Assembly: GCA_964469405.1 (NCBI GenBank)
Contig: CAYXYP010000001.1
Location: forward strand, 36,782-100,781
DNA from: an uncultured Candidatus Saccharibacteria bacterium
GTDB taxonomy: Bacteria; Patescibacteriota; Minisyncoccia; Phycocordibacterales; Phycocordibacteraceae
DNA length: 64,000 bases
Direction of reading: 5' to 3'
Shown: positions 2,474-34,624 of the stretch, piece after piece
Layout: each line of letters opens with the position of its first letter
Numbering within the stretch: the stretch's first letter is position 1
Notes under the pieces: generated by a model
Told to the model about the DNA's origin: nothing
The model's input: only the letters and a program-made list of their open reading frames with translations
The model's database searches: none
Translations under genes and position numbers: made by a program

Positions 2474-2640
2474 GTTGCCCGAGGCGGTACTGTACCCGTA
2501 CCCATAGGGAGTTACAAGGTTTTTAGGGGACCTTCCTTCCCCCTTAGTCGACGGGGGCCGGTATGGGTCGCTTTCCAATGATTTGAAGGGTTTTCGCTCG
2601 CTTCAGATCGGCCAACTAGGGCGGCGGTACTGTACCCCTC
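2474..2640. repeat. left boundary repeats of the island: GGCGGTACTGTAC (x2) flanking GGGGGCCGGTA
   Basis: GGCGGTACTGTAC at 2483-2495 and 2623-2635; GGGGGCCGGTA at 2553-2563; the same motifs recur at 14196-14229 next to the tRNA 3' end. Confidence 0.5.
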
Positions 2641-2681
2641 AATAGACACGATAGACACTATAAAAAGGGGCGGGAAAGTGT

Positions 2682-3227
2682 CTACTCGATTACCCACTCC
2701 ACCAATCCGAAATTTTCCGGCTCTAGCCCAATATTTAGAGCAGCCGCGAGCCACTCGATTTGAGAATTCTGTATCGCGTCTTTCTTCTGGCGCTTCAATT
2801 CGAGAAATACGGTCTTGCTTCCCTTCCAGACGAGGACGTCCCAGCATCCTCCGAACCGGCCGGTTTGCCTCCTCAGGTCGGAAACGAGATCCGCTTGTTT
2901 AGATGGCAAGTCTACCGGCTCCACGACATCCGGCAGGCCAACTCTATATTTCCTTCGATATGAATCCACCCAGACACCATTCCAGCCATTCGATTGAAAT
3001 AATCGAAGTACCGCGAGTTCTGCAAATACCGGCTCGCCGTTCCAATCGATAACCGCCTTATTGTTGTAGGTGTTCGGGATCGAATCGCCCACCCATTGTT
3101 TGAAGCGTAAAAAATATTTCGGTATTGAAATTTGCTCGCCAGAAGGAAGCGAAAATATTTCGCTATTACTTTTGTAATGCTCTAAAAATCCAAGATCTCC
3201 CGCTTGGTCGGGTTGTATTGTCTGCAT
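2682..3227 (-). CDS. PD-(D/E)xK / VRR-NUC-like nuclease-domain protein
   Basis: C-terminal 'GGCWDVLVW...FLELKRQKKD...Q..WL' matches the VRR-NUC/PD-(D/E)xK pattern (D...E-x-K, Q). Confidence 0.4.
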   Translation of the reverse strand: MQTIQPDQAGDLGFLEHYKSNSEIFSLPSGEQISIPKYFLRFKQWVGDSIPNTYNNKAVIDWNGEPVFAELAVLRLFQSNGWNGVWVDSYRRKYRVGLPDVVEPVDLPSKQADLVSDLRRQTGRFGGCWDVLVWKGSKTVFLELKRQKKDAIQNSQIEWLAAALNIGLEPENFGLVEWVIE

Positions 3228-3708
3228 GACCTGGGAAGGTTTTGTTTGGCGGGAAATACAAAGCTCCCCGCCAGGCGATGGCTTGCGCCACCCACCCCCA
3301 GTTTCCCGGAGGGACCTTCCCAGGTGCTCCTGACGAGGAGCTTTCTACTGGGAAGGATTTGCGTCATGCCGAGTTACCGGTTTAGACATCTTGATAATAA
3401 CGCGAAAGAGCGACCGTTGGCTACCCTAGCTTAGTTTTCGGTGGTTGCGAAGGACCCTGGGGATAACTACTTTAAGCAGCTCCGATTGACAGTGTTGACA
3501 TTCATCGTCTGTTATAAACGCTGATTTAAATATTCAGACTGAGAAAATATCGTGCGCACTGAATTGTCACGAAATGACTCTCAAAATAACTCGCGCAACA
3601 AAACGTCGATGTATACTTACACTAACCAGCGGGCGAGCAACCTATTTAGATACTGCGAGAGATTCCCAGTGTGGAATATTTCGATAGACACCAAACTAGC
3701 AACCGAAA

Positions 3709-5058
3709 ATGTTTATTCGGTTAACGATAAATGTTATGGGGAATCTCAACATAGTGTATGTGCCTATAAGTGAATTGAGACCGTCAGATTATAATCCGCG
3801 AAAATGGAACGAGGCACAGATAGTGGCACTGAAGGAAAGCTTACAGCGTTTTGGTGTTCTAGATCCATTGATATGTAATTCTGCACTCGGGCGTGAAAAT
3901 ATAGTTATTGGTGGACACTTCCGTCTCAAGGTCGCAAAGGATATGGGTCTCAAGGAGATGCCTGTTGTGTACGTGAATATACCGGAGATAGAGCGCGAGA
4001 AAGAATTAAATATCCGATTGAACAAAAACCTCGGAGAATTCGATCTAGCGATTCTTAAGGACTTCGGTGAGAACTTCTTAAAGGATGTGGGATTCGACAC
4101 GATCGAGCTAGACGAGATCTTTGAGGTTGCGACTACACCCGAGCATTTTGACCTTAAGCGCGAGCTGGAAAAACTTAACATCAGCGAGGTGACAATCAAG
4201 AAGGGCGATATGTTCGACTTAGACGGTTCGCGTCTTCGTTGTGGAGACAGCACTATTGAAGCTGACATGCTTGCACTGATGAACGAAGAGAAGGCCGACA
4301 TGTGTTTTACGGACCCACCCTATATTCTTGATTACCTTCGGGGTAAGAAGAAAAACGGCAAGCCAACGGAAGGTTTCGGATTAAAACGCGATCGTAAGTA
4401 TCTCGGAACCGACTCTCTACCCGAGAACTTCTCCGACCTCTGGATGGCGAACGTCGCCAAGGTGCAAAAGCCGGACTTCTCTATCATCGTTTATGAAAAT
4501 CCTAAGAATTTGAGGACTATATGGAACGCCCTTGAAAAACATTGGAAATATCGGAACACTATCGTGTGGCATCTAAGCAACCGCGTACAAGGTTTTTCTG
4601 CCAAGTACAAATTCTTTAGCAAGCACGATATAGCGCTTGTAGGCACCTCAGGCGATGTGACGCTCAATGATGAGCCAGAAGATGACCCGCTGTTCCAGGA
4701 ACAGTACGAGACAGCTCTCTTCGCAACTTCCGGCCATCCTCATTGGGAGGGACCTGGCAAAGGCAAAAAGTATTGCCCTACTGACCACATAGAATTCGTC
4801 GCGGCAGACGAAAAGTCGTCCGGTCAAGGAATAATCTTCGGGACTAAGCCAATAGAAATCCTCCTTCCATATCTGAAGGTGCTTACTAAGCGTGGCGATC
4901 TTGTGCTTGAGCCTTTCGGAGGTAGTGGTTCCACGCTCATCGCCGCCAACAAACTTGGTCGCCGTTGCTATGTGATGGAGAAGAGCGAAGTGTATACCGC
5001 AGTTATCATTGCCCGCTGGGAGAAGACAACCGGAAAAAAGGCGAAGAAAATTTCCTAG
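3709..5058 (+). CDS. ParB-like nuclease domain fused to a DNA methyltransferase (N6A/N4C, beta class)
   Basis: N-terminal ParB/Srx fold ('ISELRPSDYNPRKW...GGHFRL'); 'DPPY' motif IV (FTDPPY) followed by a C-terminal FxGxG SAM motif (EPFGGSGST). Confidence 0.7.
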   Translation: MFIRLTINVMGNLNIVYVPISELRPSDYNPRKWNEAQIVALKESLQRFGVLDPLICNSALGRENIVIGGHFRLKVAKDMGLKEMPVVYVNIPEIEREKELNIRLNKNLGEFDLAILKDFGENFLKDVGFDTIELDEIFEVATTPEHFDLKRELEKLNISEVTIKKGDMFDLDGSRLRCGDSTIEADMLALMNEEKADMCFTDPPYILDYLRGKKKNGKPTEGFGLKRDRKYLGTDSLPENFSDLWMANVAKVQKPDFSIIVYENPKNLRTIWNALEKHWKYRNTIVWHLSNRVQGFSAKYKFFSKHDIALVGTSGDVTLNDEPEDDPLFQEQYETALFATSGHPHWEGPGKGKKYCPTDHIEFVAADEKSSGQGIIFGTKPIEILLPYLKVLTKRGDLVLEPFGGSGSTLIAANKLGRRCYVMEKSEVYTAVIIARWEKTTGKKAKKIS

Positions 5059-5061
5059 CAT

Positions 5062-5709
5062 ATGGCTGGGAAACTTTCCCCGAAGAAGAAACGTCTTGCG
5101 ACCCTTGCCAAGAAGACTGCCGAGCAGAAGGATGCTCTCCTCGAACACCTCGCCAAATGTTGCATCGTGCAGGCCGCGTGCGAACGAACCGGAGTCGGTC
5201 GTTCCACATACTACAAATGGTACGCGGAAGATGATGGGTTCCGCAATGCGGCTGATAAGGCATTCACTGCCGGTCGTGCGTATCTGAATGATGTTGCTAT
5301 ATCAGGACTTCTTAAACTGATACAAGAAGGCAGTGTTGGGGCGACTATCTTCTGGCTCAAGAATAATCATATGTGGTTCGCCGAGAAAATCCGACATGAG
5401 CACGAGCATCGTATCATCGGTGTCGGCGATGGTGTACTTACCCCAGAACAACGCGAGCAACTCATTAAAGCTCAACGTCTCTCGGGCATGACGGCTGCGG
5501 CTATCATCCATGAAGAATTGAAAGAGAAATTCTTGGCAAGTAAGAAGGGCCAGGAAACGGCAAACGATGTTGACAAAAGTCCAACGAACGAGGCACCAGA
5601 TGACGATCGTATCTCAGACTGGGGTACAGGCAAACCGGCGGAGAAATTCAATAAAGAGCTCGAACGCAATGGGATCAATATCCAGGAGTTCTTGAGGAAT
5701 CGTAAATAA
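5062..5709 (+). CDS. phage terminase small-subunit-like HTH protein
   Basis: HTH 'CERTGVGRSTYYKW' and an 'IFWLKNNH' motif typical of phage TerS; sits downstream of the ParB-MTase as in phage packaging modules. Confidence 0.35.
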   Translation: MAGKLSPKKKRLATLAKKTAEQKDALLEHLAKCCIVQAACERTGVGRSTYYKWYAEDDGFRNAADKAFTAGRAYLNDVAISGLLKLIQEGSVGATIFWLKNNHMWFAEKIRHEHEHRIIGVGDGVLTPEQREQLIKAQRLSGMTAAAIIHEELKEKFLASKKGQETANDVDKSPTNEAPDDDRISDWGTGKPAEKFNKELERNGINIQEFLRNRK

Positions 5710-5715
5710 AATGGT

Positions 5716-5996
5716 TTTAATTCCAAGAATGGCCGCCCCCGAAGGAGAGGCCACCGCGAGAGTTATTTATTCCTCTCACGCTCAGTAGTGTCTGGATGTC
5801 TCTTGGCGTACTCTTCAGTACAGAAACGACCAGTGTCACTACGTCGATAGTCGTAGTTTGCCATAGGCAGATTCGATTAGGCTGATAAACCACCATGGAC
5901 ATGCGAAAGGCCGCATGCCCAGTCGTCAAGCAATAGAGGCTTCTCAGCTCCATGATGATTATCAACTCCATCAAGGCGGCCATTCTTGGAATCAAA
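5716..5996. repeat. 19-bp inverted repeat (TTCCAAGAATGGCCGCC) flanking a ~240-bp structured spacer
   Basis: 'ttaattccaagaatggccgcc' at 5716-5737 and its reverse complement 'ggcggccattcttggaatcaa' at 5975-5996. Confidence 0.5.
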
Positions 5997-6070
5997 GAAC
6001 CTATTTATGGTAGCTCATTTTGAGCCATAGTCGTAGACCCTAGCTTAGATACCCAGATTTGCAAAGAAGG

Positions 6071-7708
6071 TCAAAATGCAACCTCCTGGACAACTGTATC
6101 TAATCCCTGGAAATATTCGGACGGAATGTTTGATATTGGGTAGAATTTGAAACTTTTAATATCGGTACTTCCTGCCAAAGTTGCCGAGCCTTGCACAATA
6201 TATCCATCAACAGCATCCGTCTGCTCCGATATAACCGGCCCTCCACTCATACCGCTCCACATAGGGTTATTAACTAGATAGGCATGTATCCCTCCGGTTA
6301 CTTCCTTTTGTACAATATTCTGATCAACTGCTGCCGGTTCGCTCCAGAAATTTCCGTTGGACCTGAATCCTCCGTATCCCAAAGATACGTAGTCTTCTGT
6401 TTGACTATAACTATGATGAGTCTTTTTAGTGTTGGATTTAAAGATCAGGTCCGAATTGTCAGAAGCAGTGTACAAGACTGCAAAGTCTTTCACGACATCT
6501 CGACAGAGAACAGAAGCGCCCCTGAATTCAACTGGCAATCTTTTGTCTCGAGTAGTGAATTCGACACTCCCATCTTCCCCAACAACATGAGCGCAGGTGA
6601 CGATGGTGTTCTTGCTTATAAAAAAGCCACTACCGATTCCCTGAGTTGATTTGATGATTAGAACCTTGTTTAGATATTCCTCCTTCTTAGATTCTGGCAA
6701 TCTTTCCCCAAATTTCCCTTCCAAGTCACAGAGACGATTGAACAGCTTTCTATACAAGAGGTCTGTCTTATCTCTTACGTTGCCGATATGATCAATTCTG
6801 CCCCTAAGAACCTGTCGGAAGCTTTTTTTGAGACCTGAATTGTAACTATCATTAAACTTCTTCTCCGCTCCTTCTTCACCATAAACTTCCCAGGCATTAA
6901 GCATAGAACGAACATCTCTTATGTATTTTCGAGAAAGATTGCACTTCTTATTGACCTTAATTCCTGTAACCCACTTGCTTTGGTTTGGTACCGCTAAACG
7001 GGTCTTTTTTTGATTAATTGTAAAACCATTTGATTCTATTGTATTAACAATAGCCCTCCCGACAGTAACTGCACCTCCAACATTCGAGGCAAGTTTATTG
7101 TCTAGGCTATTTGCCGAAAATGTTATGTCATCCGCATAACGCGAATATCGCCAACCATTTTTATGTGCCAACCTGATTAGATCCTTGTCTAACCTTAGAC
7201 AAACCATGTTCGCAATAACAGGTGATGTAGGAGAACCCTGAGGTAAACAATTATCGCGTGTTGTGATTCCAGTCAGTACAGAAGATAGTTTATTTCCAAA
7301 ACGAAACGGATACCGTTTAAAAAGACCCATTACTCTTCCGGAGTTCACCACTCCAAAAAAGTCATTCAAATCAATATTTAATACGTAGTTTCTCTGGAGA
7401 TGGTTTTGAGCATTTGTAACAATCCCTCTACCATTAACAAACCCGTGAGCGGATTTTGGCAAAAACTCCTCGTATACGCTACCCAGATAGTAATTGAGTT
7501 TCTTACAGATAGTCTTTAATGCCTTATCTGGGGCATAAATATCTCTGTGCCCTCCCGTTTTTTTAGGAATCGTATAGTGCTTGTATAAAGATTCGTTGTT
7601 ATATGCAAAATAGAGGAGCGTCTCTAAATCAAGATCCAACAAATCTGCGAGATCTCTTATGTTTCCACAATCTCTAATATCTCTATCGGATTTGATGGTT
7701 GAAATCAT
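6071..7708 (-). CDS. retron-type reverse transcriptase fused to a C-terminal trypsin-like (S1) serine protease
   Basis: RT motifs: IPKKTGGHRDI, NIDLNDFF, LPQGSPTSPVIAN, YSRYADDITFS, and the retron-specific VTG (SKWVTGIKV). Protease motifs: TCAHVV (His) and GMSGGPV (Ser, GDSGGP-like). Confidence 0.8.
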   Translation of the reverse strand: MISTIKSDRDIRDCGNIRDLADLLDLDLETLLYFAYNNESLYKHYTIPKKTGGHRDIYAPDKALKTICKKLNYYLGSVYEEFLPKSAHGFVNGRGIVTNAQNHLQRNYVLNIDLNDFFGVVNSGRVMGLFKRYPFRFGNKLSSVLTGITTRDNCLPQGSPTSPVIANMVCLRLDKDLIRLAHKNGWRYSRYADDITFSANSLDNKLASNVGGAVTVGRAIVNTIESNGFTINQKKTRLAVPNQSKWVTGIKVNKKCNLSRKYIRDVRSMLNAWEVYGEEGAEKKFNDSYNSGLKKSFRQVLRGRIDHIGNVRDKTDLLYRKLFNRLCDLEGKFGERLPESKKEEYLNKVLIIKSTQGIGSGFFISKNTIVTCAHVVGEDGSVEFTTRDKRLPVEFRGASVLCRDVVKDFAVLYTASDNSDLIFKSNTKKTHHSYSQTEDYVSLGYGGFRSNGNFWSEPAAVDQNIVQKEVTGGIHAYLVNNPMWSGMSGGPVISEQTDAVDGYIVQGSATLAGSTDIKSFKFYPISNIPSEYFQGLDTVVQEVAF

Positions 7709-7847
7709 TCACTAATACACAAGCCTTCTTATCCTCGACCGCTAAATGCGGAACAACTTAACAACTTATGACACAGGGAGTATCCCCCTAACAACGTCAC
7801 AGCTCGTTGCTGTAACACAACGAAAAAATCGCTTGTGCATTAGTGAA
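7708..7847 (-). ncRNA. candidate retron msr/msd-like ncRNA bounded by a1/a2 inverted repeats
   Basis: 16-nt inverted repeats at 7708-7723 and 7832-7847 (15/16 Watson-Crick, one G.U). a1 ends in G, a2 abuts the RT start codon, and the inner 108 nt contain short hairpins. Confidence 0.3.
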
Positions 7848-7940
7848 TGCCTTCAAACCGAGGTAATAATAGCGCAAAATTGTCTGCAACGCTCAGAAAG
7901 TATCCGAGACGATTCGCTCGGGACCATTCAGACTGTGCAT

Positions 7941-8690
7941 TTAGTTTAGTTTTTGAAAAATAAAGAGGTGCTCATGCATTATCAATAAAAAGTTTGATTC
8001 CTTCGATCTGGTGACCCAGAAACCAGTTGCTTTGCAATTAAATTGTCGTTTAATAATATCCTCTTTCAGGACGAAACCTACTTTCAAGAATCGTTCCATT
8101 ACCTTAAAAGCGAGAGGTTGATACATTTTTTGTCTTCGAGTATCTCCCATCAAAATGGCACAGTATTTCCCAGGCCTTAAAACTCTATGGAGTTCTTTTG
8201 CAACCTTCTCTATTTCATCAACAAAAGCATCTATATCGTGTATTCCCGACAGGTCTTCTTCTATTTTGCCCTCGCTGTATTTGATGATGTCTGCATAAGG
8301 AGGGTGCGTGAGTACAAAATCAATTTCATTGTCTTTAATGAAGCTCATATTTCTCGCATCACACTTCACCACTCGTTGTTTCGCTTTATTGTCGACCTCA
8401 AATTCAAGTGATTTTCTTGTTCTTTCTAACGCTTCTTCATTCACATCAATGCAAGTGATATGACGATTAAGTATCTTTGCCTCTATTGCTGTAGTACCTC
8501 CTCCAATCATGCAGTCCAGCAAATGATCTTTTTCATTTGAGTACCGTAAAATAAGATTGCGGACGACCTCTGGTGCCCAATTTCCGCGCCAATCTGATTT
8601 ATGCGTCGCCCAGTTTCCACGACGCGGGAATGCCCATACGGTTGTACACTCTAGTTCAAATTCGTCAGGGTGTAATTTCTTTTCCACCAT
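7941..8690 (-). CDS. DNA methyltransferase (motif I GGGT then HPPY), DpnA/M.MboIC-like second MTase of an R-M system
   Basis: 'LDCMIGGGTT' SAM motif and 'HPPY' catalytic motif; 249 aa; adjacent to an REase and a Dam-like MTase. Confidence 0.6.
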   Translation of the reverse strand: MVEKKLHPDEFELECTTVWAFPRRGNWATHKSDWRGNWAPEVVRNLILRYSNEKDHLLDCMIGGGTTAIEAKILNRHITCIDVNEEALERTRKSLEFEVDNKAKQRVVKCDARNMSFIKDNEIDFVLTHPPYADIIKYSEGKIEEDLSGIHDIDAFVDEIEKVAKELHRVLRPGKYCAILMGDTRRQKMYQPLAFKVMERFLKVGFVLKEDIIKRQFNCKATGFWVTRSKESNFLLIMHEHLFIFQKLN

Positions 8691-8694
8691 ATAA

Positions 8695-9552
8695 TTACCA
8701 TACGAGCTTACCTAAAACTCCTGCTTCGAGCATGTTGAGATTAAATACATACTCGTTGTGATTGTATGTTTCTTCAAGAGGTCTCTTTGTAGTGTACCAA
8801 CCCAACCCATCAGTTATCCAAATAAAATCAATATTTTGAGCTTTCAGCTCATCATAAAGACTTCTGAATTCACCACACACGGCCTTCAGTTTTGAGCCAC
8901 CACCGTTATAAAAATTAGTTTCAAACAGTTTGATACTTTTATTCGTTGGGTTGTACACTGCAAAATCAAAACTTCGCTCTGATTTATCTATTTTCACGTC
9001 AACGCCCCACTTACTTTTTATGGCTGTAGAACGTGCTTGTGGCAAATACTCATAACCATTCTTGTTACAAAAATCACTTATGAATTCCCCTACAATCTCT
9101 TCCATCAGTGTGCCACCACGATTCTTACGGCCATTACTATCAAGACCGACCTCAACACCCATAACGTAGTCCACAAGATTCTTAACTCCATCCTTTTGGA
9201 ATAGTCGTGCGAGGCCAGATTTGTTGAGGAATTCAAAATACTTTGCTGGGTCTTTTTCTGTACCTGAGAAATCAAAGAACTCAGAATTCTTCGCAGCTTT
9301 ATCGAACACCTCGAGTTTATTCTCTCGTACGGCCAAAAGTACTGGCAGTGCCTTCACAATATCTGGGTTAGAACTATAGAGTTTCTTGAATTCGTCTTCC
9401 AGATTCTCTTTTCCGAGAAGATAATTGAGTTTATTGAGAGTTATCTCTAGATCAGAGCTATTCGCAAAGACCTTCTTCCAATTCACAAAATAGTCCCACG
9501 TCTTGATTGAACTCTTAAAAGTTGTGATGAGATTATTGAAGTCTTTGTCCAT
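8695..9552 (-). CDS. type II restriction endonuclease, probably DpnII/MboI family (GATC), inferred mainly from context
   Basis: 285-aa ORF sandwiched between a Dam-like MTase and a DpnA-like MTase, matching the DpnII/MboI/LlaDCHI cassette architecture. Confidence 0.45.
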   Translation of the reverse strand: MDKDFNNLITTFKSSIKTWDYFVNWKKVFANSSDLEITLNKLNYLLGKENLEDEFKKLYSSNPDIVKALPVLLAVRENKLEVFDKAAKNSEFFDFSGTEKDPAKYFEFLNKSGLARLFQKDGVKNLVDYVMGVEVGLDSNGRKNRGGTLMEEIVGEFISDFCNKNGYEYLPQARSTAIKSKWGVDVKIDKSERSFDFAVYNPTNKSIKLFETNFYNGGGSKLKAVCGEFRSLYDELKAQNIDFIWITDGLGWYTTKRPLEETYNHNEYVFNLNMLEAGVLGKLVW

Positions 9553-9556
9553 AGTA

Positions 9557-10513
9557 TTAATAATTAGTCACCAGCACTTCCTTAATCTTCCCTCTTCCAG
9601 ACCCTTTTGAATTAATCGCCCGCCCAGCTTCTACTTTAGAGATTCGAACTCCCTTGAATCCGGAATAAATGCCATTGATGAATGGTGCGTCAGAATTTGA
9701 GAGCATCACGAAACATCCTCTGTTACTCAATTCAAGAAAAATATCACGCAGTTCCCACTGATCCTTTTCGGAAAAGCCATTGGACGTATATGAAGTAAAT
9801 GTCGCTGTTTTACTTACAGGATGATACGGTGGATCGAAGTACACAAAATCCCCCTTCTTTGCCTTCTTTAGAACTTGTTTGTAGTCCTGATGCTTTATCT
9901 CAACGTTTTTGAGTGCTCCTGAAATCTTCCGAAGATTCTCTTCGTCGCAGATTTTTGGATTCTTGCTGTAGCCAAAGGGCACATTAAATTCGCCTCGACT
10001 ATTCACACGGTACATGCCATTGAAGCCCGCGCGATTGAGATAGATGAAACGTGAAGCTACTTGAAGCGGAGAAAGTTTCTCTACTTTTTGTGCGCGTACC
10101 TTTAGAAAATACTCTTTACTATGAGCATGCTTCTTAAGCGCCTTAATGAGACTCTCTACATCGTTTTTTATTACGTTGTACGTTGTAACGAGCTCGAAAT
10201 TGAGATCAGAGAGAAATGCTTTTTTAGGAAACAGATCAAAGAATACAGCTCCTCCGCCGACGAATGGCTCAAAGTATTGGTCCTTGGTAGAGTCGAATTT
10301 CTCTGGTGGATAAAGGTTCATCAATCTGAACTGTCTGAGAAGCTGTCGCTTCCCTCCGACCCATTTTACAAACGGTTTCGGTTTTTCTTCTATTATTTTT
10401 GCGGCCTCATTTATGAAATCTTTAGAGGAGGTTAGACCGTAGACATTACGCGCATAAATGGCATTTATATCAAATTCCTGCTGTATCTTTCTGACTGCCT
10501 CAGCCGTGGTCAT
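9557..10513 (-). CDS. dam: Dam-family (D12 class) N6-adenine DNA methyltransferase
   Basis: 'VKWVGGKRQLL' and 'YFDPPY' motifs characteristic of Dam/DpnM. Confidence 0.75.
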   Translation of the reverse strand: MTTAEAVRKIQQEFDINAIYARNVYGLTSSKDFINEAAKIIEEKPKPFVKWVGGKRQLLRQFRLMNLYPPEKFDSTKDQYFEPFVGGGAVFFDLFPKKAFLSDLNFELVTTYNVIKNDVESLIKALKKHAHSKEYFLKVRAQKVEKLSPLQVASRFIYLNRAGFNGMYRVNSRGEFNVPFGYSKNPKICDEENLRKISGALKNVEIKHQDYKQVLKKAKKGDFVYFDPPYHPVSKTATFTSYTSNGFSEKDQWELRDIFLELSNRGCFVMLSNSDAPFINGIYSGFKGVRISKVEAGRAINSKGSGRGKIKEVLVTNY

Positions 10514-10650
10514 ACACTAATACTTTAGCATTCTTGATGGATTTTGAAGCATTAGTTACCAACTCATCGAGCCTATAGGGCGGTCTGGACTCCCTGCGCG
10601 GGTTGCGTCATCCATTGTGGTAGGGCGAATTAGCAAGTAACCACAATGCA

Positions 10651-11988
10651 ATGAATAAGGCGGTATTTGAGGGTACAGACAGGGTTCTGGGGCTTAAACC
10701 AGAGGCCAAGGAGGCGGTAAAGGTGCGGTATTGCCTCTATGCCAGAAAGAGCACTGAACAGGACGAGATGCAGGCGCTCTCAATCGATTCGCAGATAAAG
10801 GAGATGACTGCACTCGCGGCTCGCGAAGACCTCGAAATTGTAGTGATTAAAAAGGAAAGCCATTCGGCGAAAGAGGCCAGCCAGCGGCCAGTCTTTAACG
10901 AGATGATCGACGAGATGCGCGCCGGTAAGTTCAACGGCATCCTGACCTGGGCGGCAGATCGTATTAGCCGCAATGCAGGCGACCTCGGGAGAGTCGTCGA
11001 TATGATGGACGCTGGAGTGCTCGTGCAGATACAGACGTATAGTCAGAAATTCTCGAACAATCCCAATGAGAAATTCCTGCTGATGATCCTCTGCTCGCAG
11101 GCGAAGCTCGAGAACGACAACAAAAGCATCAACGTGAAGCGCGGCCTACGCACACGCGCAGAGATGGGCATGCTCCCCGGCTGGGCTCCGGTCGGATATC
11201 TTAATGACACGCGGTCAGACCACAAATGCGAATATCTGCTCGACCCGATACGCTCCCCTATCGTGAAGCTTATCTTCGAAAAGGTCGGCAAAGAACGGTG
11301 GAGCGGAGTGAAGATATATCACTGGTTGCGAGAGGAAGTGAAGTTCACGACAAGAAGCGGGAAGAATATGAGTATCGGTACTCTCTACGAACTATTGAAA
11401 AACCCATTTTATTGCGGCGTCTTCGAGTATCCACGCGGGAGTGGCAATTGGTATGTCGGTAAGCACGAAGCGCTCATTACACGAGAACTCTTCGAGTTGG
11501 TACGCGAAAAGATCGTGTCAGAATCGAATCCAAAAAAACGAACGGGCGAATTTGCCTTCACTCGCCTGATGACTTGCAGCGAGTGCGGCTCTGGCGTCAC
11601 TTGCATGGATAAAGAGAAATTCGTAAAGATGCTCGGGACGACAAAGATTTACAGATATTACTTATGCACTCGAGCCCAAGACCGGCGATGTAAGAATCCG
11701 TACATTCGTGAGGATAATCTCATAGAACAACTCTCCGAAATCATCGATGGGATCGAGATAGACCGCCTTGGCGCGCGACACCTTATAGATAAAGAGGTCG
11801 CCAGATTCAACAAACTACGCTCACAGGTGCTAGGCGTAAAAGAGAAAGAAAAGGCACTCGAGATGGACGTGAAGCGTTATGCAAGATACCTGCTCGAGGA
11901 AGGCACTATCGAAGAAAAGCGACAGTTGCTTGAGCAGTTGCGCGGCAAGATCGTACTGAAAGATAAAGAAATCACGCTTTCAAATTAA
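10651..11988 (+). CDS. large serine recombinase (resolvase catalytic domain + recombinase domain + zinc ribbon)
   Basis: 'YARKSTEQ' catalytic Ser motif; C-terminal Cys-rich ribbon (CSECGSG...CTRAQDRRC); 445 aa. Confidence 0.7.
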   Translation: MNKAVFEGTDRVLGLKPEAKEAVKVRYCLYARKSTEQDEMQALSIDSQIKEMTALAAREDLEIVVIKKESHSAKEASQRPVFNEMIDEMRAGKFNGILTWAADRISRNAGDLGRVVDMMDAGVLVQIQTYSQKFSNNPNEKFLLMILCSQAKLENDNKSINVKRGLRTRAEMGMLPGWAPVGYLNDTRSDHKCEYLLDPIRSPIVKLIFEKVGKERWSGVKIYHWLREEVKFTTRSGKNMSIGTLYELLKNPFYCGVFEYPRGSGNWYVGKHEALITRELFELVREKIVSESNPKKRTGEFAFTRLMTCSECGSGVTCMDKEKFVKMLGTTKIYRYYLCTRAQDRRCKNPYIREDNLIEQLSEIIDGIEIDRLGARHLIDKEVARFNKLRSQVLGVKEKEKALEMDVKRYARYLLEEGTIEEKRQLLEQLRGKIVLKDKEITLSN

Positions 11989-12483
11989 ACGAGCACTCAT
12001 AAGTTGAATAGATAACGCCTGATCACTCACTCGATACAGACGAGCAAGTGTTGGAATATCAGGAGAGGATTTATAGTCTTTCTTGAGAATTATTTTCGGC
12101 ATGAGGAGCTCGGCAGCAAAAACATTCGCTTCGGTTTCGTCATGCGATCCATCATCCTGTCTACCGGTGCAAGCATGACCCAAAAGTAAGTGGCCTATTT
12201 CATGAGCGATTGTGAAGCGACGACGACACCAGGGATGATTGCCATTAAACCCGATAGTTGCGTATTCACCGTCAACATCTTTGCAGGATACGAGCAACCC
12301 AGAGACTTTACTGCTGGCTTCAACACGGAGCACGGTTAGATTATGCTCGATTTGCAGGTATTCGATGACCTGTTGCAACGAGACGGGCGCATTTTTTATT
12401 TGTGCGTCCTTAACCAGTTTCTGCGCTAGTGTTATCGCCAGCTTTTTCCGCGCACCCAAATCTGGCAAATCATCGTACATTTG
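11980..12483 (-). CDS. ImmA/IrrE-family zinc metallopeptidase (anti-repressor protease)
   Basis: HEXXH 'AHEIGHLLLGH'; overlaps the end of an upstream XRE regulator as in ImmR/ImmA modules. Start estimated at the internal Met (MYDD...). Confidence 0.6.
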   Translation of the reverse strand, partial: QMYDDLPDLGARKKLAITLAQKLVKDAQIKNAPVSLQQVIEYLQIEHNLTVLRVEASSKVSGLLVSCKDVDGEYATIGFNGNHPWCRRRFTIAHEIGHLLLGHACTGRQDDGSHDETEANVFAAELLMPKIILKKDYKSSPDIPTLARLYRVSDQALSIQLMSARLI

Positions 12484-12814
12484 GCCTGCGCTTCGCAAGA
12501 TTAATGAAGCGAGAGAGTGCGTCTTTATCCTCCTTACTGAGATCTGGGTCGGCGCGAAGAGCCACTTGAATATCGACGGGAGCATCCTCTTTCTGGCCGA
12601 GAAAAAATTTCACATCTCGCTGAAGTACTTCGCTCACACGCTGCAAAAGTGCGGCTGGGATACCTCGTTCACCCTTTTCAATCAAAGAGATGGCTGTTGC
12701 TGACTGGAAGCCGAGCGCTTCAGCCAACTCGGTCTGTGATAAATTCCTCTCCTCCCGGACTGCCTTTATCCTAGAGCCCATCGTATTGGCGCTTTTTCCT
12801 TCCTTTTTTATCAT
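12470..12814 (-). CDS. XRE-family helix-turn-helix transcriptional regulator
   Basis: 'LSQTELAEALGFQSATAISLIEKGER' HTH_XRE signature. Confidence 0.75.
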   Translation of the reverse strand: MIKKEGKSANTMGSRIKAVREERNLSQTELAEALGFQSATAISLIEKGERGIPAALLQRVSEVLQRDVKFFLGQKEDAPVDIQVALRADPDLSKEDKDALSRFINLAKRRPNVR

Positions 12815-12845
12815 ATTCTAATTATAGACTTTTCAATTAGTATTG

Positions 12846-12875
12846 ACAACAGCTTACCGATTTTGCTAAAATGGA
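12846..12875 (+). promoter_or_regulatory. sigma70-like promoter (TTGACA-18-TAAAAT) for the + strand cargo genes, divergent from the XRE gene
   Basis: 'TTGACAacagcttaccgattttgcTAAAAT' ~45 nt upstream of the 12920 start. Confidence 0.35.
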
Positions 12876-12919
12876 TTTAGCGTTCTGAAAAACGCCCTTA
12901 CAAAATCACCCGTCAAGCC

Positions 12920-13192
12920 ATGTTTACATACCTAGTCTCATACGACCTCATCCGCCCCCACAAAGATTATCCGAACCTCATCGCTTACATGAAGACCTTC
13001 AGCTCTTGGTCAAAGCCACTTGAGTCAGTCTGGCTAATTAAGAGTAGTGCTGGTGTCGAGCAGGTTCGCAATTCGATCCAGGTACATATGGACAGCAACG
13101 ACAAAATTCTGGTCGTTGACGTCACCAGCAGAGCTGCCGCTTGGGACAAACTCCCCGCGGAGGTTAGCACCTGGATCCATAGTTCATTATAA
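12920..13192 (+). CDS. hypothetical 90-aa protein (island cargo)
   Basis: ORF with no recognisable motifs. Confidence 0.4.
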   Translation: MFTYLVSYDLIRPHKDYPNLIAYMKTFSSWSKPLESVWLIKSSAGVEQVRNSIQVHMDSNDKILVVDVTSRAAAWDKLPAEVSTWIHSSL

Positions 13193-13208
13193 CCGAACGC
13201 GTACTACT

Positions 13209-14138
13209 ATGATCATCAAACAGAAGAGGATTCATAAACTTGAACCGTACACCCGTCTGATACCGACCGGGGACGACCTTGTGGTCGGTGTAGCAAGTCC
13301 CGCAGGGGACCGTCTCCGCGCCATCGGATTTTCTAACGCCCTTGAGAACGGCGAGACTGTGCTGCCTACACCAGTGGGACACACCAGCCTGTTCAATGCG
13401 GAGGGGAAAAATAAAATTAACCGCGACTTACCGAAGGAAACCCTATATCGCACCGCCGAGTGGACATGGACTGAGCTCCACGGAAAGGACCGCGTTGAGC
13501 GGACTGCCTTCGTTGACATACCCTACCAACGCTATCCACGTATACCTATTCCACCTCCGTCTATGGAGCTCGTTCTCGCGACAGATGCGGACGGAGTTCG
13601 CGTCGTAAGAACATCTATCATCAAGAATTGGAAAACCAGTCCTGATTCAGTAATTCACGCAGTGAACCTGATGCTTGAGCTGTTTGGTGAGTGTTTGTTC
13701 TACGATGCAGAAATGAAGCGTCTCATTGCCGCGCCAGTAAAGCGCTTGACCTGGAATCTACTTCCACCCGGAAGACGTCCATTCGCTGCCCTTAAGGCGA
13801 AGCTTGCCGAAGTACTCGCTGACGTGAAGACCGGTAAGCTATCGTTTACCGAACATCGCTTGGAGACAGTAAATGCGTATAAGCCAGACTTTGCGGCCGT
13901 TGGTAATGGCGGGTTTCGTGGCTACGTAGTGCTTGGCTTCGTAGATCGCAATCTGTATGTATTAGAGAGCTTACTGTATGGGAATGCGACTTATGTCTTT
14001 GAAGAGAACTGGGAAAACCTCTCAAAGAAGACGAAGGCAGAGATCCTTGATAAGCGACTTCAGAAAGAGCGTCTCGTTCATCATAAGAACTGGGCAGTCG
14101 ATGTTGCTTCGCTCTTGAAAATCGAGACGTCAAAATAG
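13209..14138 (+). CDS. hypothetical ~310-aa protein (island cargo); start estimated at internal Met (MIIKQKR...)
   Basis: Long ORF 13047..14138; no recognisable domain; terminator hairpin follows. Confidence 0.4.
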   Translation: MIIKQKRIHKLEPYTRLIPTGDDLVVGVASPAGDRLRAIGFSNALENGETVLPTPVGHTSLFNAEGKNKINRDLPKETLYRTAEWTWTELHGKDRVERTAFVDIPYQRYPRIPIPPPSMELVLATDADGVRVVRTSIIKNWKTSPDSVIHAVNLMLELFGECLFYDAEMKRLIAAPVKRLTWNLLPPGRRPFAALKAKLAEVLADVKTGKLSFTEHRLETVNAYKPDFAAVGNGGFRGYVVLGFVDRNLYVLESLLYGNATYVFEENWENLSKKTKAEILDKRLQKERLVHHKNWAVDVASLLKIETSK

Positions 14139-14150
14139 TACTAGCAACAA

Positions 14151-14184
14151 ACGCAGAAGCCGCTCTTTCGAGCGGCTTCTGCGT
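14151..14184. terminator. perfect hairpin terminator (ACGCAGAAGCCGCTC-tttc-GAGCGGCTTCTGCGT)
   Basis: 15-bp perfect inverted repeat, T-rich on the minus strand after it; downstream of both the cargo gene (+) and the tRNA (-). Confidence 0.6.
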
Positions 14185-14189
14185 ACGTG

Positions 14190-14252
14190 ATGCCTGGCGG
14201 TACTGTACTGGTCCCAATGGGGGCCGGTACTGGTTCCTGGCGTCACAACCGT
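14190..14252. repeat. right-boundary repeats: GGCGGTACTGTAC and GGGGGCCGGTA, the latter a partial copy of the tRNA 3' end
   Basis: 14196-14208 and 14219-14229; GGGGGCCGG is identical to the + strand image of the tRNA T-stem/acceptor junction at 14258-14266. Confidence 0.5.
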
Positions 14253-14253
14253 G

Positions 14254-14542
14254 TTGCGGGGGCCGGAATCGAACCGGCGTCTGGAGGTTATGCTTACCAC
14301 TACAATTTTCATTGCCCTATAGTTTGTGGTCTGGACTATGCCTTCATCCGTCAACTTGCCGGATGTCTACCGTCTAGTCTCTACACCTTCCGAGTGACAA
14401 CCATCACAGGGCTTGGCTCGGTGTTGCCCTTCGTTATTCATGAGAGGGGTTCGCCGAATTTGGCAGATAATCTTGCGCGCAATTACTCACGCGTACGCCC
14501 GAATTTTTCAAGCCTCCCGAGGTACCTCTCCTCTACCCCGCA
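14254..14542 (-). tRNA. tRNA (anticodon most likely CAU: Met or Ile2) split by a ~218-nt group I intron in the anticodon loop; no encoded CCA
   Basis: Exon 1 (14542 to ~14511) folds as acceptor UGCGGGG, D-arm GAGG/CCUC, anticodon stem GGAGG + CU. Exon 2 (~14292 to 14254) gives CAUAA + CCUCC, var loop, T-arm GCCGG-UUCGAUU-CCGGC, acceptor CCCCGCA. Only the CU|...G|CAUAA split obeys the exon-U / intron-omegaG rule. Confidence 0.7.
14293..14510 (-). other. group I (IC3-like) self-splicing intron within the tRNA
   Basis: Core elements on the minus strand: P-like AAUUGCGCG, 'CAAAUUCGGCGAA', 'GCAACACCGAGCCAAGC', R 'GGUGUAGAGACUAGACGG' and S 'AUAGUCC' (P7 pairing GACUA/UAGUC). Close resemblance to bacterial tRNA group I introns (Azoarcus/cyanobacterial type). 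Confidence 0.6.
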
Positions 14543-14639
14543 CAGAAAGTATACACATAAAAATATGTGCGGCAACATATTTTTATGGAACCTGTGACTA
14601 TAGTAATAATATGCCTGATATACTGGTACCATATACACT

Positions 14640-15341
14640 ATGAAGACTGCCTCAAAATTACGAGCCGAATCATTACGACACCGAGGGAAAAGTGTTAAAG
14701 AAATCGCCCTGAAAGTCGGCGTCAGCCAGAGCACGGCAAGCCGGTGGTGTGCTGGCATTATTCTCTCCATAGATCAGCGCGGTGCATTGGAAAGAAAGCG
14801 ACAAAAAGCAGGTGCAAAAGCCCTTGCTCCTTGGATACGCCGAAATCGTGATTTGAAAAAGAAGGACATCGAGAAACAGAGCCAGCAAGGCCGTCGAGAT
14901 ATACGTAAGTTAACAAAACGTGACTTGCTTACGCTTGGATTGGGTCTCTATTGGGGTGAAGGGTATAAGCGCGGTAGCCAAGAATGGGGGTTCACAAATT
15001 CTGATTCTGGAATGATACGAACTGTTCTTGTGTGGCTTCATGAATGTTACAACATACCGATTGAACGCATCATCGCAAAACTCACGATAAATCTACGGTA
15101 TAAAACTCAAACTGAGCGTCTGACGGACATGTGGGCGGACGAAACTGGTATCCCACTTTCTCAATTCGGGAAGCCAACGTTCATAAGCGGTTATAATAGT
15201 TCAAAACTAAATGAGCGTTCTTATCGAGGAACTCTTCGTATCAAAGTACGCAGAGGAACATCGCTCCGTCGACGTATTCTCGCAAGTATTGTCGAAATTA
15301 ATACTCAAATGACTTTGAATTCGCGAAAGACGGCAGAATAG
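14640..15341 (+). CDS. HTH + LAGLIDADG-like (single-motif) homing-endonuclease-like protein
   Basis: N-terminal HTH 'KSVKEIALKVGVSQSTASRW'; 'LGLGLYWGEGYK' resembles the LAGLIDADG motif with an acidic residue. Confidence 0.3.
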   Translation: MKTASKLRAESLRHRGKSVKEIALKVGVSQSTASRWCAGIILSIDQRGALERKRQKAGAKALAPWIRRNRDLKKKDIEKQSQQGRRDIRKLTKRDLLTLGLGLYWGEGYKRGSQEWGFTNSDSGMIRTVLVWLHECYNIPIERIIAKLTINLRYKTQTERLTDMWADETGIPLSQFGKPTFISGYNSSKLNERSYRGTLRIKVRRGTSLRRRILASIVEINTQMTLNSRKTAE

Positions 15342-34513: not shown

Positions 34514-34624
34514 GAACTAACGATGCACAGCGTCATCAGTTCTTGTTTTGACAGCGAGAGCTCGCGCAGAAAAGAAAACTCGGCGCATATGCACCGAGTT
34601 TTCTTTTCTGCATGAATTCAGATT

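Follow-up and report, generated by a model that had tools for sequence, protein, structure and literature searches.

The locus lies on the minus strand of the window, the whole 64,000-nucleotide stretch of DNA analyzed here. Reading the sequence, we found a 71-nt tRNA(CAU) in two halves (14542–14511 and 14292–14254). Between them lies a group I intron of IC3 type, 218 nt long and without an ORF (14293–14510), which was identified by Rfam RF00028, covariation, and nhmmer. The 5′ exon (14511–14542, 32 nt, tRNA positions 1–33) comprises the acceptor strand UGCGGGG, U8 A9, the D arm GAGG-AGAGGUA-CCUC, G26, the anticodon-stem strand GGAGG, and C32 U33. The 3′ exon (14254–14292, 39 nt, positions 34–73) supplies the anticodon CAU, A37 A38, the stem strand CCUCC, the variable loop AGAC, the T arm GCCGG-UUCGAUU-CCGGC, the acceptor strand CCCCGCA, and A73. 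CCA is absent from the gene, and CAC stands directly 3′ of A73. A preliminary description of this DNA, made from the letters, had proposed two such halves with these arms and an intron of about 218 nt; every one of its structural statements about the tRNA held, and the intron is exactly 218 nt (14510–14293). A consensus scan placed a candidate promoter (TTGCCG-16 nt-TATACT, 14548–14575, minus strand) directly upstream, a match to the consensus whose function is putative. The end of its −10 hexamer precedes tRNA nucleotide 1 by 5 nt, which would leave a very short 5′ leader; in the related locus L007, TTGCTT..TATACT lies 7 nt before nucleotide 1.

Default ARAGORN called no gene at this locus in the window. 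With introns allowed it found the split gene, as had been suggested, returning a tRNA of 72 nt whose intron measures 218 nt. The product spliced in silico was called tRNA-Met(cat). The placement of the intron in the intron-allowing runs was arbitrary, yielding Ser(tga) for the window and L007, Leu(caa) for L010, and Leu(cag) for L014; we rejected these anticodons because of the U-1/omega-G rule and because of the intron-less orthologues.

The splice sites are fixed by two orthologues that have no intron (L008:4796–4866 and L012:8590–8660, in two related Patescibacteria MAGs). Both read AGCGGGGTAGAGGAGAGGTACCTCGGGAGGCTCATAACCTCCAGACGCCGGTTCGATTCCGGCCCCCGCAA and differ from the predicted spliced tRNA at nucleotide 1 alone; as in the window, gatA lies about 1.2 kb upstream of each. 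Against RF00005, the intron-less orthologue scores 58.9 bits. The insertion site is thus between U33 and C34: the precursor runs from GGCU into the intron (UGAA...UAAG) and on into CAUAACC, while the intron-less orthologue has GGCUCAUAACC. The first intron nucleotide is U and the last is G, with U of the 5′ exon and C of the 3′ exon on either side, so that moving the junction fails to give the orthologue. The predicted spliced junction joins ...GGGAGGCU to CAUAACCUCC..., and the junction-spanning sequence is GGGAGGCUCAUAACCUCC. The preliminary description had placed the split after CU and between G and CAUAA, with a U.G wobble, an omega-G, and the anticodon CAU; the alignment and the intron-less orthologues support this placement, the orthologues and the spliced product agree on the anticodon, and the uninterrupted homologues, which it had singled out as informative on exon boundaries, have the boundaries predicted here.

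The intron starts UGAAAAAUUCGGGC and ends GUGGUAAG, its last G being the omega-G at 14293. Rfam Intron_gpI (RF00028) matched 14519–14300 on the minus strand over the full model (1–253) with 48.3 bits (E-value 3e-11 local and 3.2e-9 for the whole window). At the gathering score of 50 bits, the whole-window Rfam scan returned nothing at the locus, the match being 1.7 bits short, so that it appears with E-value thresholds only. The covariance-model check proposed earlier thus gave a significant full-model match that stays below the gathering score. Of the five copies, that of the window scores lowest on Rfam; the syntenic introns of three related MAGs (L007, L010, and L016) score 58.6–69.8 bits on the same model, above the gathering score.

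We set the P1–P9 structure explicitly, including the P3/P7 pseudoknot, and counted it on 13 homologues. Pairing was found in 94.1% of cells, compared to 32–43% in slid controls, 34 of 58 pairs had changed on both sides, and the observed covariation score was reached by none of 500 shuffles. The window copy retains every column that shows no variation among the 13 homologues. The minimum free energy of the intron was no better than that of shuffled sequences (z 0.05), and thermodynamic stability therefore carries no signal here. RNAalifold recovered P2–P6, P8, and P9b; because it cannot model pseudoknots, it proposed a long-range GGGC/GUCC helix instead of P1 and P7, which we regard as spurious, and we used the explicit pseudoknotted structure. 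We conclude that the P1–P9 structure is far beyond chance.

The individual elements, all on the minus strand, are as follows. In P1 (14497–14513, Rfam alignment), G31 C32 U33 and intron nt 1–4 pair with nt 8–14 (UUCGGGC); U33.G12 is the 5′ splice-site wobble pair, present in all four Patescibacteria copies, and two of the seven pairs have changed on both sides. P2 (14476–14493, nt 18–35) is a 7-bp hairpin with a GUAA (GNRA) tetraloop; across the four Patescibacteria copies, six of its seven pairs have changed on both sides, and the MFE fold recovers the hairpin too. P3 is formed by UCUGCC (14462–14467, nt 44–49) and GGUAGA (14366–14371, nt 140–145), the latter in a pseudoknot with P7; 98.7% of its cells are paired and five of six pairs have changed on both sides. 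The P4-P5-P6-P6a domain (14386–14458, nt 53–125), delimited by covarying helices and the Rfam alignment, holds the P element AAAUUCGGCG and the Q element CACCGAG. In the Rfam alignment, the P element, the 5′ strand of P4, is AAAUUCGGCGAA (nt 50–61); the AAUUGCG that had been taken for a P-like element (nt 27–33) sits in L2 and the 3′ strand of P2. A P4 mismatch, C58xA89, is unique to the window copy, and P5 is shortened in it. P7 pairs GACUA (14375–14379, nt 132–136), inside the R element GUAGAGACUAGACGG, with UAGUC (14334–14338, nt 173–177) of the S element AUAGUCC (Rfam alignment); R, S, and P7 are as originally read. All P7 cells are paired and its last pair covaries (AU/UA/GC), and by homology P7 is the predicted guanosine-binding helix. 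P8 (14345–14365, nt 146–166) is a hairpin in which six of six pairs have changed on both sides. P9 (CCAC/GUGG) surrounds P9b (CAAU-GAAA-AUUG, with a GNRA tetraloop; 14297–14329, nt 182–214), and UAAG follows, ending in the omega-G, so that G218 precedes C34. In our own reading of the sequence, P10 is only about 1 bp. These data show a conserved group I fold, and the orthologues show the exon–intron boundaries; self-splicing is predicted.

In an nhmmer comparison with labelled tRNA introns, the top eight matches were all labelled IC3. The best of them sit at 33/34 of tRNA-fMet and tRNA-Ile2 genes in other phyla (E 1.7e-20 to 4e-14), led by the fMet 33/34 intron of the Desulfobacterota genome GCF_017377395.1 (E 1.7e-20). 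IA1-labelled introns matched at E of at least 8e-5, and those labelled IB2 or IA3 did not match the window intron. The helix map is compact, with P2 but no P2.1, no P5abc, and no P7.1/P7.2 or P3.1-type insertions; P8 begins right after the 3′ strand of P3 with no extra helices between. By similarity to labelled introns and by helix content, we assign the intron to the IC3 type, in line with the earlier suggestion of a small IC3 tRNA intron, which the nhmmer matches, covariation, and Rfam alignment bear out.

The identity of the tRNA required a revision, as the preliminary description had judged it not to be an initiator and had favored elongator tRNA-Met or tRNA-Ile2 with C34 modified to lysidine. 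Such an assignment draws on the ability of U1 to pair with A72, on the fact that only two of the three pairs at 29–31:39–41 are G-C, on the label 'Met (CAT) 33/34' given to similar U1..A72 Microgenomatia genes (Nakagawa et al. 2026), and on the occurrence of IC3 33/34 introns in tRNA-Ile2 of Acidobacteriota and Bacillota_B (Nakagawa et al. 2026). We nevertheless consider it unlikely, as several features point to an initiator. The D stem (G10 A11 G12 G13/C22 C23 U24 C25) contains A11:U24 and G12:C23, which have been published as complete discriminators of tRNA-fMet (PMC1635315). The acceptor has a weak U1:A72 pair followed by G2:C71, C3:G70, G4:C69, and G5:C68, with A73, and so combines the lack of a strong 1:72 pair with G2:C71 and C3:G70, as in initiators; some 1.5% of bacterial initiators themselves have U1:A72 (PMC1635315). 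Positions 29–31/39–41 are AGG/CCU, which is not the strict GGG/CCC but fits the relaxed R29G30G31/Y39C40Y41, and AGG/CCU has been documented as a natural variant of initiators (PMC1635315; PMC5389676), the au/GC/GC form being natural in alpha-proteobacteria, chloroplasts, and some mycoplasmas (PMC5389676; PMC1635315). In tRNA-Ile2, by comparison, C4:G69 and C5:G68 are frequent, with G3/A3 or C70/U70 and Y11:R24 (PMC1635315); the window gene departs from this pattern in C3:G70, G4:C69, G5:C68, and A11:U24, and from the elongator tRNA-Met pattern (a strong 1:72 pair and a D stem without A11:U24) in U1:A72 and A11:U24. The syntenic orthologues carry mismatches at 1x72, A1xA72 at nine loci and C1xA72 at two. 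BLAST against E. coli gave a median of four places per genome, and the one checked, which is the closest match, was the initiator gene metY, located upstream of rimP. A separate CAU tRNA of elongator type (G1-C72, Y11:R24, GUCGGCGUAGCUCAG...) adjoins the orthologue in several relatives (at least L009, L016, L017, L019, L021, and L028). Finally, 33/34 is the classical insertion site in tRNA-fMet (Williams 2020). We conclude that the gene belongs with the initiators, on the basis of its orthology to initiator tRNAs, and that its product is predicted to be formylated and used at the P site.

Two further explanations were weighed. The intron could be decayed and no longer spliced, leaving a pseudogene, while another initiator gene, one without an intron, does the work from a different place in the genome. 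This reading would fit the Rfam score, which is the lowest among the five copies and short of the gathering score, as well as the unique C.A mismatch in P4, the short P5, and the weak P10. It is made quite improbable by the retention of every column invariant in the 13 homologues, by the intact splice-site U.G, omega-G, and P7, and by exons that equal functional-looking intron-less orthologues apart from nucleotide 1. In addition, five contigs, assembled from five different samples, span the locus and all carry the same precursor sequence, and copies with an intron alongside copies lacking one, with the same anticodon in one genome, are reported to be rare (PMC13011429). That unrelated tRNA-like halves happen to flank a pseudo-group I core, a chance resemblance to which the sub-threshold Rfam match and the MFE z of 0.05 might lend color, is refuted by the whole-window E-value of 3.2e-9, by syntenic homologues with compensatory changes, and by intron-less orthologues that equal the joined halves.

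We thus favor, with a probability of roughly 0.82, the reading that the locus encodes the tRNA-fMet(CAU) of a groundwater Patescibacteria, carrying between U33 and C34 an ORF-less 218-nt IC3 intron that would be removed by ribozyme splicing. The caveats that attach to the window copy are its lowest score, C58xA89, the P10 of about 1 bp, and a U1:A72 that is able to pair, where most orthologues have a mismatch. Following the established group I mechanism, a precursor would be made from the promoter directly upstream and fold into P1–P9. Exogenous guanosine bound at P7 would attack the phosphodiester after U33, which would be held by the U.G wobble with intron G12 in P1; the omega-G (14293) would then replace guanosine in the G site, and the 3′-OH of U33 would attack the bond before C34. 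The joined exons would give the anticodon loop CUCAUAA. Alignment of the exons would probably be provided by the tRNA anticodon stem and not by the weak 1-bp P10, and CCA would then be added by an enzyme. If the genome has no other initiator gene, the usual situation in genomes this small, every start of translation would depend on the ribozyme.

IC3 introns at 33/34 of tRNA-fMet are one of four classical classes of bacterial tRNA introns. The class, fMet.2Ug, was first described in cyanobacteria (Williams 2020; Nakagawa et al. 2026), and the 2026 survey also lists tRNA-fMet 33/34 introns in Bacteroidota, Desulfobacterota, Nitrospirota, and Omnitrophota (Nakagawa et al. 2026). The window intron shares with this class an initiator CAU tRNA as host, the site after U33, the U-1.G wobble, the omega-G, and the IC3 architecture; the core blocks CAAAUUCGG.GAA, CCGAGCCAAGC, GGUGUAGAGACU, and AUAGUCCAGACCACAAA are near-identical, and a GAAA-capped P9b and GUGGUAAG followed by CAUAACC are likewise common to both. 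It differs from known fMet.2Ug introns in its host phylum, Patescibacteria, in the au/GC/GC, U1:A72 initiator variant of its host tRNA, and in length, with 218 nt compared to 245–305 nt in the labelled fMet examples. The window intron is shorter because it has no extra P1–P2 insertion and a short P5.

The Azoarcus pre-tRNA-Ile(CAU) intron is also small (about 200 nt), lacks an ORF, and interrupts the anticodon loop of a CAU tRNA, and the core blocks CAAAUUCGGCGAA, GCCGAGCCAAGC, and GGUGUAGAGACUAGACGG are, we presume, common to the Azoarcus ribozyme and the window intron. That intron, of class Ile2.5Ug and subgroup IC3 (Williams 2020), is inserted at 36/37 of a tRNA-Ile2 after a 5′ exon ending in CAU, whereas the window intron is at 33/34 of an initiator. 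IC3 introns at 33/34 are also reported for tRNA-Ile2 of Acidobacteriota and Bacillota_B (Nakagawa et al. 2026). Closer in host are the Microgenomatia tRNA-Met(CAU) introns of GCA_001029755.1 and GCA_013426185.1, which, in Table S3 of Nakagawa et al. 2026, are Patescibacteria introns at 33/34 like ours. Both of these genes share with the window the acceptor UGCGGGG...C(C/U)CCGCA with U1:A72, but their D arm is GUGU/GCAC, giving U11:A24, and their intron cores differ (CUAGAGACUACACGCC, AUAGUCCGGCACUC) and did not match that of the window with nhmmer. Patescibacteria introns at 35/36 of tRNA-Asn and tRNA-Asp are of type IA and were shown to self-splice in vitro (Nakagawa et al. 2026). They resemble the window intron in phylum and in residing in genes missed by annotation tools, and differ in site, tRNA, and subgroup, which has extra helices after P3′.

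The same survey of complete genomes states that no Patescibacteria tRNA intron is classed IC (Nakagawa et al. 2026), whereas the window intron groups with IC3. This is a small addition: the Patescibacteria do have IC3-type introns at the site that is classical for tRNA-fMet. The intron is of a long-known kind, with no new mechanism or class, and its IC3 type in this phylum is only a mild surprise. In practical terms, the gene escapes both ARAGORN in its default mode and Rfam at the gathering threshold, so that a genome of this organism, annotated by routine means, would seem to have no initiator tRNA, an artefact recently described for Patescibacteria tRNA-Asn and tRNA-Asp (Nakagawa et al. 2026). 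A more far-reaching reading, in which this is the sole initiator gene, the intron acts as an RNA-level gate on nucleotide status and not as a neutral selfish remnant, and the intron, of an IC3 lineage common to tRNA-fMet and tRNA-Ile2 genes of other phyla, was laterally acquired, strikes us as doubtful when taken as a whole. If true, the supply of initiator would be coupled to nucleotide status via a guanosine- and Mg2+-dependent ribozyme, and the reported absence of IC3 from Patescibacteria tRNA genes in the 2026 survey would imply the lateral acquisition.

The contigs derive from Hainich groundwater (0.1 and 0.2 μm filter fractions). The nearest relatives of GatA are from Candidatus Parcubacteria (77% identity), Paceibacterota (71%), and Patescibacteria MAGs (71%), suggesting that the host is a Parcubacteria/Paceibacteria-like member of the Patescibacteria (CPR). 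An exact look-up of the neighboring 363-aa ORF gave no record, probably owing to a wrong start codon. We considered whether the tRNA is part of the adjacent mobile element and rejected this, since L001 lacks the element yet has the identical tRNA and intron. Orthologues with and without intron were taken from genome contigs. Among 14 loci with the orthologous gene, five have an intron at 33/34, one (L014) has been invaded in the same tRNA at 36/37 by a different intron, and eight are intron-less, a patchy pattern that fits repeated gain and loss. Two of the related loci, L010 and L016, also have a tRNA-Asp(GUC) with a 35/36 intron within about 1–1.5 kb of the initiator gene.

On the minus strand, a tRNA gene is split into two exons separated by exactly 218 nt. 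Reading of 14150-14650 places a 32-nt 5' exon at 14542-14511 (acceptor UGCGGGG, U8, A9, D arm GAGG-AGAGGUA-CCUC, G26, GGAGG, C32 and U33) and a 39-nt 3' exon at 14292-14254 (CAUAA, CCUCC, the 4-nt variable loop AGAC, T arm GCCGG-UUCGAUU-CCGGC, CCCCGCA and A73); the gene does not encode the CCA end. The minus-strand sequence bears out the split tRNA of the preliminary description: the feature is real and was located accurately. Default ARAGORN did not find the split gene, and an Rfam gathering-score scan of the window gave no match at the tRNA locus. Run with introns allowed, as had been suggested, ARAGORN returned a 72-nt tRNA with a 218-nt intron, placing the intron arbitrarily and calling the tRNA Ser(tga). 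The product spliced in silico, joining CU to CAUAA with the intron ending in G, was called tRNA-Met(cat).

Starting from relatives of the neighbouring GatA, we fetched the surrounding loci and searched them by nhmmer and ARAGORN. The same tRNA lies ~1.2 kb downstream of gatA in these loci, with homologous introns at the same site in L007 (220 nt), L010 (205 nt), and L016 (250 nt) that score 58.6-69.8 bits on Rfam Intron_gpI, over the gathering score. Uninterrupted orthologues occupy the syntenic position in L008 (CALUBY010000049.1) and L012 (JACDGK010000001.1), each with 71% GatA identity; their tRNA, AGCGGGGTAGAGGAGAGGTACCTCGGGAGGCTCATAACCTCCAGACGCCGGTTCGATTCCGGCCCCCGCAA, matches the Rfam model for tRNA at 58.9 bits. 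The splice sites proposed earlier, with a homologous uninterrupted tRNA as their test, agree with these two genes, which differ from the predicted spliced product at nucleotide 1 only. The intron starts with U and ends with G (14293) between exon bases U and C, so junctions shifted by one base fail to give GGCUCAUAACC and the boundaries are unique. P1 consists of exon G31-C32-U33 together with intron nt 1-4 on one strand and intron nt 8-14 (UUCGGGC) on the other, and includes a U33.G12 wobble retained in all four Patescibacteria copies.

The intron (14510-14293) matches the complete Intron_gpI model (1-253) at 14519-14300 (-) with 48.3 bits (E 3e-11 locally, 3.2e-9 over the whole window); the gathering scan missed it because this score is 1.7 bits under the gathering score. 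We wrote out a P1-P9 structure, including the P3/P7 pseudoknot, from the window sequence and counted it on a 13-sequence alignment of the four Patescibacteria copies and nine introns (tRNA-fMet or tRNA-Ile2, 33/34, labelled IC3) from a portion of Table S5 of Nakagawa et al. 2026 (PMC13011429). Standard pairs fill 94.1% of 606 cells, compared to 32-43% with the 3' partners slid 1-3 columns; 34 of 58 pairs change on both sides, and the covariation score was reached by 0 of 500 shuffles. Nearly every pair of P2, P3, P6a, P8, and P9b covaries, as does the last pair of P7 (AU/UA/GC). Thermodynamic stability of the intron gave no signal on its own (z 0.05). The full-model match and covarying fold thus uphold the group I reading, with one correction: AAUUGCG (intron nt 27-33), previously taken as P-like, is located in L2 and P2, while the P element is AAAUUCGGCGAA (intron nt 50-61), which aligns to the Rfam consensus AAUUGCGGgAAA. 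The window copy alone among the aligned introns has a C58xA89 mismatch, located in P4; we regard this mismatch, the sub-threshold Rfam score and the predicted status of splicing as points of caution.

Searching with nhmmer against the labelled introns in that portion of Table S5, we found that the closest are IC3 introns at 33/34, led by a Desulfobacterota fMet intron (E 1.7e-20) and followed, in order, by Desulforudis Ile2, Bacteroidota fMet, Acidobacteriota Ile2, Omnitrophota fMet, and Nitrospirota fMet. Within the same portion, IC3 introns at 34/35 rank after these, IA1-labelled introns gave marginal scores only, and labelled IB2 and IA3 introns gave no match. The helix map, with a GUAA loop on P2, P8 directly after the P3 3' strand, a GAAA-capped P9b, and neither P2.1 nor P5abc, is the compact IC3 layout, in keeping with the small IC3 tRNA-intron type assigned at the outset. 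At only 218 nt, the intron cannot code for a homing endonuclease. Group I introns at tRNA-fMet 33/34 form one of the four classes, each of them IC3, that are classically recognized in bacterial tRNA genes (Williams 2020), and a 2026 survey of Patescibacteria tRNA introns lists two 'Met (CAU) 33/34' introns in Microgenomatia (PMC13011429); those two gave no nhmmer match to the window intron. Because both the class and Patescibacteria tRNA introns are already described, this intron adds to a known kind. In the 95 complete genomes that it covered, the survey reported finding no IC-type intron in Patescibacteria tRNA genes, and the apparent IC3 grouping of the window, L007, L010, and L016 introns is the only mildly unexpected point.

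The preliminary description read the tRNA as elongator Met or Ile2 and not as an initiator; this is the part of its interpretation that does not stand. The tRNA has A11:U24 and G12:C23, which were found to separate tRNA-fMet completely from elongator Met and Ile2 (Silva et al. 2006, PMC1635315), together with the formylase determinants G2:C71, C3:G70, and A72 and discriminator base A73. Positions 29-31/39-41 are AGG/CCU, the 'au/GC/GC' variant that occurs naturally in initiators of alpha-proteobacteria, chloroplasts, and some mycoplasmas (PMC5389676, PMC1635315). The 1:72 pair is a weak U1:A72, reported in 1.5% of bacterial initiators (PMC1635315), and Nitrospirota genes labelled fMet in the same portion of Table S5 (PMC13011429) start UGCGGGG and end CCCCGCAA. 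Syntenic orthologues carry 1x72 mismatches: A1xA72 in L007, L008, L009, L010, L011, L012, L014, L019, and L021, and the canonical C1xA72 in L017 and L023. In several loci an elongator-type second CAU tRNA (G1-C72, Y11:R24) adjoins the orthologue. By BLAST against all complete E. coli genomes, the spliced tRNA has matches at a median of four places per genome (78% identity), and the one place inspected, between argG and rimP, is metY. Finally, 33/34 is the classical insertion site in tRNA-fMet ('fMet.2Ug', Williams 2020; '33/34 in tRNA-fMet', Nakagawa 2026, PMC13011429). We conclude on these sequence features that this is the initiator tRNA (tRNA-fMet) gene. Routine annotation would list this genome as lacking an initiator tRNA.

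A promoter-like site, TTGCCG-16-TATACT (14548-14575, minus strand; a consensus match only), ends 5 nt before nucleotide 1, which is A in most orthologues. Promoter-like -10 hexamers, likewise consensus matches only, end ~5-12 nt before nucleotide 1 in the window, L007, L009, L010, L016, and L017, a proximity that implies very short 5' leaders. Boundaries, fold, and orthology are demonstrated by the analysis, and the splicing steps we infer from the established group I pathway: Transcription would proceed from the promoter-like site, the intron of the precursor would fold, and exogenous guanosine at P7 would attack after U33; omega-G would then be swapped into the G site and the U33 3'-OH would attack before C34, giving the anticodon loop CUCAUAA. 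By eye, P10 of the window copy is only ~1 bp. The exons are probably aligned by the anticodon stem they form, as Zaug et al. 1993 demonstrated with the tRNA-Leu intron of Anabaena (cited in PMC13011429).

The exact GatA protein is found on 18 contigs; among those listed, five of six come from metagenomes of Hainich groundwater (0.1 and 0.2 μm filters) and the sixth from a Logan assembly. The precursor sequence is identical on all five contigs spanning the locus. Among GTDB genomes, the nearest GatA relatives belong to MAGs of Candidatus Parcubacteria (77%), Paceibacterota (71%), and Patescibacteria (71%), with the next at 60% or less, indicating a Patescibacteria (CPR) host; the host species itself is not among the representative genomes. 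Of the window and 13 related loci with the orthologous initiator gene, five are interrupted by the 33/34 intron, one by a 36/37 intron, and eight are uninterrupted, a patchy distribution typical of bacterial tRNA introns. The 36/37 case (L014:8898-9231 (+), JBEDID010000022.1, a Candidatus Parcubacteria MAG) has exons nearly identical to the window's, but between CUCAU and AACC lies a different group I intron of 262 nt, ending cag (Rfam 60.2 bits), whose core GGUUCAGAGACUAUAAUGA resembles IA-type Patescibacteria introns. Related lineages thus carry two different introns at two sites of the same gene. We additionally observed tRNA-Asp(GUC) genes split at 35/36, within ~1-1.5 kb of the initiator gene, at L010:5636-5914 (+) (206-nt intron, 29.9 bits) and L016:9887-10205 (+) (244-nt intron, 35.3 bits); both score under the Rfam threshold and match a class shown to self-splice by Nakagawa et al. 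2026 (PMC13011429). Partial duplicates of the tRNA 5' end (AUAGCGGGGUAGAGG, UAUAGCGGGGUAGA) lie ~60-70 nt upstream of intact intron-less initiator genes, at approximately L012:8520-8535 and L021:8198-8211.

A putative integrated element of ~11.6 kb (2623-14208) starts ~45 nt downstream of the tRNA; a 13-nt direct repeat (minus-strand sequence GTACAGTACCGCC) marks its two ends, at 14196-14208 and 2623-2635. Contig L001 is 99.7% identical over ligA-gatCA-tRNA, does not carry the element, and departs from the window sequence at 14219; its flank past the repeat (Zip, FUR, YibE_F) is absent from the window, which means additional strain-to-strain divergence on the far side. Among the cargo genes are a large serine recombinase (10651-11988, +), an ORF weakly matching the spr1629 repressor/antitoxin family (11980-12585, -; an HTH gene plus a Peptidase_M78 gene on related contigs), and a 363-aa ORF (13047-14138, +). 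Defence-type genes occupy 6071-10513, with G+C ~0.40 versus ~0.49 elsewhere: a DpnII-family restriction endonuclease (8695-9552, -) beside a Dam methyltransferase (9557-10513, -), a second N6/N4 methyltransferase (7941-8690, -), and a reverse transcriptase fused to a trypsin-like protease (6071-7708, -). Also inside the putative element, a LOOT RNA (Rfam RF03000; 3277-3388, -; 67 bits against a gathering score of 46.4) adjoins a ParB-N/DNA methylase fusion gene (3709-5058, +). Elsewhere in the window, a palindromic stretch (34559-34618) matches the microRNA model mir-5879 on both strands at 37.5 and 36.2 bits, far under the gathering score of 97; an inverted repeat or a terminator is the likeliest explanation.
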